A DNA stretch of 64,000 bases from Eledone cirrhosa. Taxonomy: Eukaryota. Location: assembly GCA_964016885.1 (NCBI GenBank), contig OZ024743.1, positions 291,772,001 to 291,836,000 of the forward strand. The letters are read 5' to 3'. Both the position numbers and the translations under genes were made by a program. Each line of letters begins with the position of its first letter. The first letter of the stretch is position 1. Below are positions 54,702 to 58,930 of this stretch, piece by piece. The notes beneath the pieces were generated by a model. It ran no database searches. It was given only the letters and a program-made list of their open reading frames with translations, and was not told the origin of the DNA.

Positions 54702-56120
54702 TATACGTTTAGGAATAACCAAAGAGTTCTTAGAAATACATTGTTTTATTTGCTAAAAGTGTTTCATCCATACCCTTGGGCAGGAACCATCGGAACTTAT
54801 AAACAAAAATATATCAAAGGTTGCAGGCTCCATCGAGCTCTGTCCCAAGAACAAGGATAAAGGACAAGTAGGGGGGTCTCGAGGCCAGCGCTGTATAGAG
54901 TAACACACAATACATGATACATATAGTGTCATAAGAAATTACATCAAAAGCTTATCACATAAATGGTGCAATAGATCTTAAGGCAGTTGAGAGAGGAGAG
55001 CAATAAATGAATGATGGTGTTATTCAGCATGATCAAAACAAAAAAACATAGACACGTCCATTCACCAGCAGTGCAAACACAGGATTTACAGGCAGAGTAT
55101 GAACGCTTGTAAACAGTAGTCAGTAAAAAGAAAAGTTGGTTAGCTGTGGTGCAGCTTCACAGGCAGGATAGTTTATAGGAAAGATGGTACACTCCAGTGC
55201 TATCGCCTTGTACCAGGTTGATTTCTCCGTATCAGACCACCACCCTCCATCCATTGGTTCCGGTTCCAAGCGTTAGGCGATTTAATATTAAGTTTCCAAA
55301 CACACGCATGGAGGAATTCACGACAGAGGCAGTCTGCAATAAACATTTTAAATCTAAAATAAAGTACAATGAAGTGAGGTAAAGTAGAGTACATGCACTG
55401 CTGGCACTCCAATGAAGAAGGTGAAAATAAAACAGGTTCGCAATATCTGCTATCTCTTAAAGTCTTCATATTCGGTCACGAAACCCACCGTCCCTAGTGA
55501 AATACACTGTATGGCCGAGTCGGCATCGCACTAAAGTGCCATACGATATGTAAATATATCATAGTTAATGCTATTCGTATTGGTAGTCAGTGGCGTAGAC
55601 AGAAAGCGTAAATAGAAAAGCTCCGCTTATGGAATTACCTAGGGCGGAGTGAAGGAAAAGCAGTGATGGTTACGTTAATAAGCGAGCTTATTAAAATAAG
55701 TGTAAATTTCTGGTGTTTGCAAGTACTGCATAAGATATAGTAAACTCACGGCTAAAACTGCTCATGTCAACAATACTGTTTACATGTTCACCACGTGATC
55801 TTTGTGTTGATTACTAAGTCTGGAGGTTGAAATCATTTCACAGTCGGCTGTAATCCCTCCTGGGTCGGTTGGAAGTCAATATCAACTGTCGCACCTTGCT
55901 TTGAATGAGGTTCTATAATTTATAATAGTTGCAGCACGATTCATATTCCACTACTTGTCGTTTATCCTTGTTCTGGTGACAGAGCTCGATGGAGCCTGCA
56001 ACCTTTGATATATTTTTATTTATAAGCTCCGATGATTCCTTCCCTAGGGTATGGATGAAACACTGTTAGCAAATAAAACAATATATTTCTAAGCACTCTT
56101 TGGTTATTCCTAGACGTATA
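54702..56120. mobile_element. Element with ~170-bp diverged inverted arms (54702-54870 and 55951-56120) carrying HHR-like motifs
   Basis: Reverse-complement similarity; GCT-CCGATGA-tTCC..GGAt-GAAACACTG-TT-AGC at 56026-56070; (TA)n on the right. Confidence 0.7.
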
Positions 56121-56831
56121 TATATATATATATATATATATATATATATATATATATATATTTAGTTATGTAGTAAATAACATAAGATAATTATTTCATT
56201 TACTAGTGGTTTCTTGAAGGCAGATGTTGTGTCTGTCTTCAGTCATGAGATTGAATATATAACATGGTGTTTTTATTAAATATGGATTTGAAAACAAAAT
56301 TAACGAAATATGAAAGTGAGGCTGAAAAATACGGGCGAAAAGAAAATAGGGGAAAACATATAAAAAAATAAATATTCAGAACATAAACATACACGCTCAA
56401 CTACGCGCATTTCATATATTTTAGATGTCACAGACATGTTGTAACAGAGTTGCGGCGACACTGGCAACCACTCGATATATTATACTAAAAGAAGAGAAAT
56501 AAATAAAGAAATATATAGAAATATATTTTTGAAATAAGACAATAGAACCGTGTGGAAATGGAAGCACCAATGGAAACATAAGTTGTAAATCTCCGAAGCC
56601 ATTTATGAAAGTATTGAAGAAGACATGGAAGAGGCTCCTATCAGAAGAAACCCTCACAGAATCATCAGTTTTCTTACCTGTTGTTCAAACCTGGCTGGAC
56701 ACAAAACACTGCACAAACATTCTAAACTAAATAAATATATATATATATGTATATATATATATATATATATATATATATATATATATATATATATATATAT
56801 ATATATATATATATATATATATATATATATA

Positions 56832-57520
56832 CAGATTAAAGTTTAAGCAAATAATCGCTGCTTTCACCCTTAACGGGATCTTCTGATACTAAAAATCAAT
56901 CTGTGAACGCAGAAGTAAATATTTCAAAAATCGTTGCAACTGGAGGAAGACAGGAAGACGATACTTTGGTGAGATATGTTTCCCTGCTTGGTCCGGGTAT
57001 GTTCTTTGTAGAAATATTCAGAAGTTGTTTCTGCATGATGAATATAAGTCAATAGAGTGCTCAACCGAGGGAGCCAAATAGTAATAATAATACATTTGAA
57101 GACTAAAATCCCAAGAGGGCTCCATAAGGATAAATATGTATCTAATATATAAGAATCGTAGAGCATATATTTATTAAAATAAAAGATTAAAGTTTAAACA
57201 AAGAATCGCTGCTTTCACAAGTAACGGGATCTTCTGAAACTAAAAATCAATCTGTGAATGCAGAAGTAAATATTTCAAAAAAACGTTACAACCAAAGGAA
57301 GACAGAAAGACGATCCTTTGCTTAAGTATGTTTTCTTGCTTGGTACGGGTATGTTCTTTGTAGAAATATTCAGATGTTGTTTCTGCGTGATGAATATAAG
57401 TCAATAGAGTGCTCAACCGAGGGAACCAAATAGTAATAATAATAAATTTGAAGACTAAACTCCAAAGAGGGCTCGATAAGGATAAATATATAGCAAATAT
57501 ATAAGAACTGTAGAGCAAAT
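56832..57520 (-). mobile_element. Tandem dimer (351-bp period) of a miniature non-autonomous derivative of PLE family A
   Basis: Each unit is family A 5' UTR + first ~21 codons fused directly to 3' UTR + HHR; (TA)n on both sides. Confidence 0.85.
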
Positions 57521-57533
57521 ATATATATATATA

Positions 57534-57700
57534 TGTTGATTTAAAACTGCACTATTCACAAGTGTTTTTTAACCTTCATATCATGTCTCCCTATTTTATC
57601 TGAAGAAAACGCAAATATCATCGCATGATGATATTTGTTTTTGAAATGCGCATAATAAAATACATGGAACGCTTTTAGCCATCTTTTGATCTTATATTAT
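57534..57700 (+). mobile_element. Solo family-E pLTR with HHR (57594-57660)
   Basis: Homologous to 48290-48455; between TA tracts. Confidence 0.8.
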
Positions 57701-57760
57701 ATATATATATATATCAAAATAAAGATCCTAAGGCATGGTATAAATCTCCAATCATTTTAA

Positions 57761-57834
57761 TCATGACACATGTTTCAATAAGAGATAGTTCGATCGTGTA
57801 GCCATGATCGATTATCACTGAATTCGTCAGGTGA
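57761..57834 (-). ncRNA. Type I HHR-like motif in a TA-bounded 260-bp fragment
   Basis: TCAc-CTGACGA-..-GAAACATGTG-TC-aTGA; GUC triplet, stems partly decayed. Confidence 0.6.
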
Positions 57835-58147
57835 AAATGAATTGTCTTCAAATCCTTGATATGAAGGAGAAAATTAACGATGTTCACTCACAGAATTTAG
57901 CCCCTCATAATATTGCTAAAAAAAATGTGTTGGACCGTAGGACACAACCAATAATACACCTTACTTTATAACAACTATATATATATATATATATATATAT
58001 ATATATATATATATATATGCCTCTATCTTTGCACTCGGCACTGAACAGAATTGCTTCCACATCATTCATTCTCGTCTCGGGAACAATTTTGAATAGCGCC
58101 AGTTCGTAATTTGAACTCGGGAATTTTATATTCTCCGAGTGAAAAGA

Positions 58148-58234
58148 ACCTTCTGACGAGAGTTTATCTTTTCAATGGAAGCCCGTAAGGACTGTCCATT
58201 TATATTTGCGACTCGAAACCGATTCGGTAAAGGT
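58148..58234 (+). ncRNA. Type I hammerhead ribozyme motif
   Basis: ACCTT-CTGACGA-GAGT..ACTC-GAAACCG att CGG-TA-AAGGT; all stems intact, GUA triplet. Confidence 0.85.
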
Positions 58235-58384
58235 AACCATATTAAGTAGAGTGAATTTTTTGAAATTTATTTTGAAACTTTTTCTTAATTGCTAAATCTT
58301 GATTATAACGAAGGAAATGTGGTAAGGAACCAGGTGGACCATAACGCACCAAAGTACTCAATACTTAGGGTAGTATAGTGGGTA

Positions 58385-58930
58385 ATAGGAACAAGTAAGA
58401 CCCCGACGGCTGAGCTCAAATCGTTTCGACGGCTAATTCTGGACTGAATGAAAATGTATTCTGGTATTTAAATAGCCGAGCTTATCAAGGGGTAATTCCA
58501 TATATGGTCAAAGAGATAATCACCAGGTTGGTCACCTCACAAGTTAGTAGTAAATCTGTGATGGCAAATTTAAGCGTTGGTAGTGCCGGCTACAGCTGTT
58601 TCGACTTCCTCTCCCTTCCCCTCCCCAGTATCCTCTTTGACCTCACACCCAGCTGTAGCCGGCACTACCAACGCTTGAATGGGTCTACTCCACCCTTCTC
58701 CCTTTTTCTCCTACAGGCAGGTTCAGCTGCCCCTTCCCCCACCAATTTGCCATCACAGATTTACTACTAACTTGTGAGGTGACCAATCCTGGTGATTATT
58801 TCTTTGACCATATATGGAATTACCCCTTGATATGCTCGGCTATTTAAATACCAGAATACATTTTCATTCAATCCAGAATTAGCCGTCGAAACGGCTTGAG
58901 CTCAGCCGTCGGGGTCTTACTTGTTCCTAT
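58385..58930. mobile_element. Inverted pLTR-like pair (58385-58597 and 58650-58930) with variant HHRs at 58400-58493 (-) and 58822-58915 (+)
   Basis: Reverse-complement arms (right arm has ~65 extra nt); ACCCC-TTGATA(A/T)-..CGGCTA..TAGCCG..-GAAACGGCT..AGCCG-TC-GGGGT. Confidence 0.78.

Follow-up and report, generated by a model that had tools for sequence, protein, structure and literature searches.

Hammerheads and insertion into (TA)n are known features of the Hydra clade of Penelope-like elements (PLEs; Craig et al. 2021, PMC8557442), and hammerheads of metazoan PLEs have been described separately (Cervera and De la Pena 2014, PMC4209133). For the lizard PLE Poseidon (PAc), two internal start sites of the reverse transcriptase (RT) and a tail have been reported, with both strands being cut and extended at AT-rich DNA and a hammerhead that is dispensable for insertion in vitro (Frangieh et al. 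2024, PMC11167929). Retrozymes without long terminal repeats (non-LTR retrozymes) form circles that are closed where the ribozyme cuts (Cervera and De la Pena 2020, PMC7229834) and have been tied to the pseudo-LTRs (pLTRs) through homology and trees (Li et al., bioRxiv 10.64898/2026.07.22.740005). All statements about these publications refer to their accessible sections. The current study places beside them a stack of nine hammerhead motifs in a 64,000-nt stretch, hereafter the window, of the AT-rich 3.0-Gb genome of Eledone cirrhosa (GenBank assembly GCA_964016885.1, contig OZ024743.1, positions 291,772,001 to 291,836,000 of the forward strand).

The stack very probably consists of the cut-off 3' ends of seven abundant families, which were inserted independently and at different times in TA repeats. 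An initial annotation had listed nine hammerhead-like motifs on both strands from about seven families. All nine are present, at 56026(+), 56195(-), 56832(-), 57183(-), 57594(+), 57761(-), 58148(+), 58400(-), and 58822(+), and belong to exactly seven families: A (56026), B (56195), C (the pair 56832/57183), D (57594), E (57761), F (58148), and H (the pair 58400/58822). The blocks follow each other in the order A-(TA)22-B-B2-(TA)50-C-(TA)8-D-(TA)10-E-(TA)21-F-TATA-H-(TA)42, the (TA)50 being a TA run of 100 nt, and are thus mostly separated by (TA)n, as had been claimed, save for the TA-free junction 56411-56458 between B and B2 and the bare TATA before H. Families A, E, and H are present as fold-backs with a one-sided tail, B, D, and F as single truncated ends, and C as a dimer. 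First-look candidates elsewhere in the genome were numerous (H, 4,563; F, 3,277; B with B2, 2,293; E, 1,589; A, 1,426), of which the best 40 per family were scored, and 53 insertions were counted in an unbiased sample of 800 kb (H, 28; C, 14; D, 6; F, 3; A, 2; B and E, none). The arm or unit divergence (H, 3%; A, 8%; C, 10%) and the nearest-copy identity of the blocks, from 93% (B) to 98% (H), differ, which argues for insertions of differing age. At other loci, the families stand next to each other in other orders.

The carrier, which had been left unnamed, can be identified with PLE ends, whose TA targeting and hammerheads are published (PMC8557442). Judged by sequence, the blocks of families A, C, D, and H derive from the 3' ends of Hydra-type PLEs. 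RT, endonuclease (EN), and family end follow each other in the same sense in A (loci L195/L196), C (window 11858-17258), and H (L191/L192), and EN is followed by the D end at window 46536-48453; these domains were named by eye and by mutual tblastn. The endonucleases of all four families have the CxCX5C linker, CxxC, and CxH, DKT replaces DKG in C and H, and RWR is found in H and in C copies read from the DNA; a full H element with DKT, RWR, and CxCX5C is present in L191/L192. All seven families combine (TA)n insertion with a hammerhead in the pLTR, and from this anatomy alone we infer that B, E, and F belong with the PLEs. Links of B, E, and F to open reading frames (ORFs) in L193, L194, L197, and L199 were dropped, as these ORFs belonged to other families or were cut off by TA runs.

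Many properties are shared with published elements. Hydra-clade PLEs likewise exhibit RT followed by EN, DKT, an RWK-like motif, CxCX5C, CxxC, and CxH, as well as hammerheads, (TA)n insertion, inverted 5'-truncated copies, and a one-sided tail; however, the tails of about 70-150 nt exceed the 30-40 bp stated for PLEs, H measures about 3.9 kb with both ends as opposed to "generally <3 kb," and multi-family stacks are not described in the accessible sections of PMC8557442. Metazoan PLE hammerheads share the type I architecture with a long helix II and a short palindromic helix III, the U3-A8 variant, opposite-strand pairs 100-700 bp apart, and many families per genome (PMC4209133). Literature searches, in which few subscription papers were covered, returned no paper on multi-family hammerhead or PLE stacks.

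In every family, the 3' ends fall sharply into two classes, short and tailed, the latter extending 70-150 nt beyond the former; TA follows both. In family A, 11 of 24 copies end within 20 nt and 12 of 24 at 110-139 nt; in family H, 28 of 59 copies end within 10 nt and 22 of 59 at 80-89 nt. An NCTC...GAGN stem, a pattern defined post hoc, begins 4-14 nt after 7 of 10 stop sites, versus 1.8% of random spots (sites in the A-H tails, window 54592-54705 and 58311-58387, and in L013, L016, L024, L050, L058, L080, L137, and L186). As in Poseidon, two internal starts would explain both the short and the tailed ends, and the targets are AT-rich; in contrast to that element of another clade, the start sites here precede the ORF, with the predicted stem after each one. 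The GIY-YIG endonuclease of the element would cut (TA)n, and the reverse transcriptase would begin at either of two fixed positions inside the element, both immediately 3' of the hammerhead, so that even the shortest copies would carry the ribozyme. Copying would halt early, and extension from both cut strands would sometimes generate a fold-back, while the flanking TA would remain as a target for the next element. Each end would carry its own hammerhead as a passenger and decay neutrally afterwards, which would account for the damage to most ribozymes of the stack.

The genomic background was sampled in 80 evenly spaced 10-kb tiles (L111-L190) of C1-C6 and C28. A type I hammerhead descriptor written for this analysis, with a strict cutoff score of >=10, yielded 103 matches in these 800 kb, i.e., about one per 8 kb, versus 3 in a shuffle of the same tiles, so that the motifs are not due to chance. 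A pooled library of all detected families, with at least 27 families of two or more members, revealed 187 motifs (2.3 per 10 kb). (TA)n accounts for 6.3% of the sampled bases; a TA tract lies within 200 bp downstream of the hammerhead in 123 of 176 cases and upstream in 60 of 176, compared with 587 of 3,419 random spots, and the number of TA tracts per tile correlates with that of insertions (rho 0.58); a comparison of ribozyme and TA-tract density had been proposed. For 57 of 122 insertions, another family is located within 1 kb, versus a mean of 29 in global shuffles (maximum of 50 in 2,000) and of 41.5 in within-tile shuffles (P=0.004). Counted as the maximum per 2.9 kb, 28, 25, 16, 9, and 2 tiles contain 0, 1, 2, 3, and 5 families, respectively, and the stack with its seven families is the high tail of a genome-wide process, the same in kind. 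The extrapolated number of strict hammerheads is about 3.7x10^5 (bootstrap, 2.4-5.6x10^5). Published counts, obtained with other descriptors, are 2,000-9,000 per genome and up to 120,000 in the axolotl. The genome may hold some 3x10^5 intact hammerheads, above the published counts, and the estimated density is far higher than that for metazoan PLEs in PMC4209133, with the same reservation about the descriptor. Two of the sampled tiles contain retrozyme-like satellites, long tandem arrays in which every unit has one intact hammerhead (L153, 310-bp units in both orientations; L163, 556-bp units).

Several observations weigh against independent insertion of PLE ends as a genome-wide process. The seven families of the stack exceed the maximum of all 80 tiles, and the pooled library both undercounts the background and includes all seven stack families by design. 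Within-tile clustering shows no significant excess at 500 bp (P=0.25), and TA is lacking at the B/B2 junction. With respect to the carrier, Pfam recognized none of six PLE ORF pieces, the assignment to the Hydra clade is based on motifs and not on a tree, and no linked PLE ORF was found for B, E, and F among the loci examined. Finally, the F end is followed by the H tail in 3 of 19 other loci (L002, L003, and L014), as would be expected if the blocks had moved jointly, be it as a single composite element or several blocks at a time. The query used for those loci itself contained that junction, and the three loci differ in TA length (6, 16, and 8 units) and in H length. A 2,983-bp query of the whole region revealed no second multi-block copy, and hence no composite repeated as a unit, in the best 40 of 22,894 candidates (150 of 257 matches listed). 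With family pairs meeting in other orders and block ages that differ, joint transfer is highly improbable.

The role of TA itself allows a second alternative, namely, a tolerant, gene-poor region in which insertions survived and TA grew after insertion, rather than a feedback via reused TA targets. PLE and Helitron debris is abundant throughout the window, global clustering is stronger than within-tile clustering, and the missing TA between B and B2 would fit as well. However, many unrelated flanks show a preference of TA for the 3' end, (TA)n targeting has been reported for almost all Hydra families (PMC8557442), and within-tile clustering persists at 1 kb, which makes tolerance an unlikely explanation. 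Independent insertion into TA also modifies the initial proposal of one TA tract that was hit repeatedly and became a self-perpetuating landing pad: the repeated (TA)n insertion is supported, but a single tract much less so, 56411-56730 being a non-TA relic whose left end lacks TA. The landing pad is in line with hammerheads that lie upstream of TA and are clustered genome-wide at 1 kb, but not with the 500-bp data.

The nine motif copies are mostly damaged. Only 57594 and 58148, both on the plus strand, reach the strict score; 56026 attains 9.5, the remaining six fail, and none on the minus strand passes, 58400 (H left) being the nearest. The type I core C3-U-G-A-N-G8-A9 (or U3-A8), GAAA, UH is complete in 57594, 57761, 58148, and 58400, while it is changed in 56026 (U4C), 56195 (G5C), 56832 and 57183 (U4A), and 58822 (A9U). 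Changes of G5, A9, and U4 would be expected to impair hammerhead cleavage. Helices I-III are sound in 57594 and 58148 and weakly so in 56026; in the C dimer, there is additionally a helix I mismatch (56832) and a broken helix II (57183). Family alignments showed that the core and helices are kept in most copies of A, B, C, E, F, and H, with CCGAUGA in 9 and CUGAUGA in 8 of 23 other copies of A. Rfam recorded no hammerhead at the gathering score in the window and none at E<=10 in 54-61 kb, and its E-value matches were dismissed as TA-repeat artifacts.

The initial annotation had also supposed that a transcript crossing the region in either direction could be cut, and it is conceivable that the stack is retained by the host in order to cut read-through transcripts coming from both sides. 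The plus strand offers two intact motifs, D (57594) and F (58148), and 58400 is near-intact on the minus strand; the best candidate for monomeric cleavage is predicted to be 58148-58234 (F), whose helix III can close as a monomer. The D motif, however, has a minimal palindromic helix III, a type for which weak cleavage and dependence on a dimer have been reported (PMC4209133), and PLE hammerheads in vitro cleave poorly or depend on protein (PMC4209133, PMC11167929). Six of the nine motifs fail the descriptor, several of them by core changes seen only in this copy. Since 19 of 80 random tiles hold at least two strict motifs within 2.9 kb, the cutting potential of the stack is unremarkable. The supposition of cutting in either direction is hence weakly supported, and a device maintained by the host has very little to recommend it.

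The C block may document an additional process. Its 352-bp unit comprises the 5' region of the parent up to about ORF nt 62-82, joined to a point 4-26 nt past the predicted 3' splice site, which sits at the ORF end; only about 65 nt of the ORF are kept. A query for this join was spanned by 38 of the best 40 matches. Among 30 C loci (window 56832-57518; L022-L030, L236-L255), 17 join lengths were found, but these loci were chosen by similarity to the window block or join, which favors similar joins; in multi-unit loci, the units agree on the join within 2 nt in 13 of 13 cases, inverted arms included. Folding of a natural C copy predicted a helix of +22-39 with ORF +48-63 (main pair probabilities of 0.72-1.0), which closes a domain of about 350 nt with the hammerhead and both start sites. 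Of 977 windows, ORF +48-63 ranks second as a partner, and the joins are located in the helix loop, away from the ribozyme cut site. We tentatively propose, as a possibility rather than a probable event, that retrozyme-like minis such as the C block arose repeatedly at a structured RNA domain of an autonomous Hydra PLE. The ragged ends of the domain would be joined just outside the long-range helix and not at the cut site, via ligation or a jump of the reverse transcriptase, and one RNA would be copied more than once per insertion, resulting in a tandem or fold-back with a locus-specific join.

Alternatively, the C joins may have drifted from one founder via small deletions. Repeated birth is challenged by the selection of loci with joins like that of the window and by 20 unselected read-through copies, of which 16 run into the ORF, 2 jump, and 2 were unassigned; one of the two jump copies (L272) lacks a helix strand. 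In H, neither a closing helix nor a join of an ORF start to the end (0 of 6) was found. Visual inspection of the roughly 100 nt shared by minis and parent revealed no fixed difference. A tree of minis and ORF-bearing copies, which rejected one clade for the minis, was discarded because many rows had nonhomologous flanks. Further observations concern the ends of C, whose first nucleotides are those of a predicted 3' splice site. Most copies have a long pyrimidine-rich acceptor there (L214-L235), the C copies of the window (17050-17091) have a 41-nt GT...AG stretch instead, whose AG is also part of the stop codon, and H has a predicted acceptor similar to that of C. In L267, the join holds a short piece of the endonuclease region, identical in both arms, as in a two-step jump.

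The C minis share properties with known retrozymes but also differ from them. Like non-LTR retrozymes, the C dimer and F form non-coding tandem units of 350-490 bp with one type I hammerhead each, related to PLE ends; F occurs elsewhere as tandem units of about 486 bp. With two 352-bp units, the C dimer falls within the 150-450 bp of non-coding retrozyme units, but its damaged U4A copies differ from the complete type I hammerhead expected in each. Family C numbers tens of thousands of copies; its U4A core is family-wide (25 of 33 copies) and goes unmentioned in the accessible sections of PMC4209133. Another difference is that the start of the ORF is joined to the region behind it at points that vary by locus, and such joins are not shown in the accessible sections of PMC7229834 or bioRxiv 10.64898/2026.07.22.740005. 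The literature searches, again with few subscription papers covered, returned no paper on U4A hammerhead cores and nothing closer on locus-specific joins.

The features of the stack and the reference parent of family C are compiled in the table. Beyond the stack, 27 more hammerhead-family motifs are distributed over window 11604-62409, family C hammerheads lie at 14462 and 17188, and other 2.9-kb stretches starting before 52 kb hold at most three families each. An inverted pair of endonuclease ends at window 28235-29479, with a CX4CxxC finger and hammerheads at 27975 and 29681, is likely a PLE of the Neptune/Nematis type. Broken ORFs at window 57-4320 resemble Helitron Rep/helicase.

Table. 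Coordinates of the hammerhead stack and of the family C reference parent in the window
Feature	Position	Strand	Remarks
Family C reference parent	11858-17258		Inverted pair of broken ORF-bearing Hydra-type PLE copies
Family A fold-back insertion	54592-56116	both	Arms 92% identical
Family A left arm, long	54592-54705 (tail), 54706-54874 (end), 54875-55947 (3' untranslated region)	-	
Family A right arm	55948-56116	+	169 bp
Family A minimal type I hammerhead	56026-56070	+	U4C, 3-bp helix I, score 9.5
(TA)22	56117-56161	.	Between 3' ends of A and B
Family B 3' end	56162-56410	-	5'-truncated
Family B hammerhead	56195-56255	-	G5C plus helix I and III mismatches; likely dead
B2 relic, eighth repeat family	56459-56722	.	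Truncated on both sides; left end without TA; no hammerhead passing the descriptor
(TA)n run	56731-56831		About 100 nt
Family C dimer	56832-57518	-	352-bp units; joins near 56970 and 57322
Family C hammerheads	56840-56890, 57191-57241	-	U4A cores, both damaged
(TA)8	57519-57534	.	Between 5' ends of C and D
Family D 3' end	57535-57693	+	
Family D minimal hammerhead	57592-57662	+	Intact; palindromic helix III; predicted cut after 57654
(TA)10	57694-57713	.	Between 3' ends of D and E
Family E fold-back	57714-57975	left arm -, right arm +	Left arm 57714-57909; right arm, last 68 nt of the tail
Family E hammerhead	57753-57839	-	Core intact, first helix I pair broken
(TA)21	57976-58017		
Family F 3' end	58018-58307	+	
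Family F hammerhead	58148-58234	+	Intact; predicted cut after 58229
Family H fold-back	58311-58927	both	Arms 97% identical
Family H left arm	58311-58387 (tail, 77 nt), 58400-58493 (hammerhead)	-	U3-A8 core, one helix III mismatch
Family H right arm hammerhead	58822-58915	+	A9U
Predicted 3' splice site in H	near 58716		
(TA)42	58928-59011	.	Right-hand close of the stack

Overall, the stack is explained by the known behavior of TA-targeting, hammerhead-bearing PLEs, of which it is a new, dense, and mostly decayed example, and it illustrates how such elements build repeat piles in a large animal genome. Hammerhead matches in a genome of this kind should accordingly be treated with caution, as they are transposon debris. 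If the C minis were indeed born repeatedly, their sequences would trace how an autonomous PLE can give rise to a non-coding retrozyme, a connection for which the arguments to date are co-occurrence and trees, and would name an RNA domain required by the Hydra reverse transcriptase.

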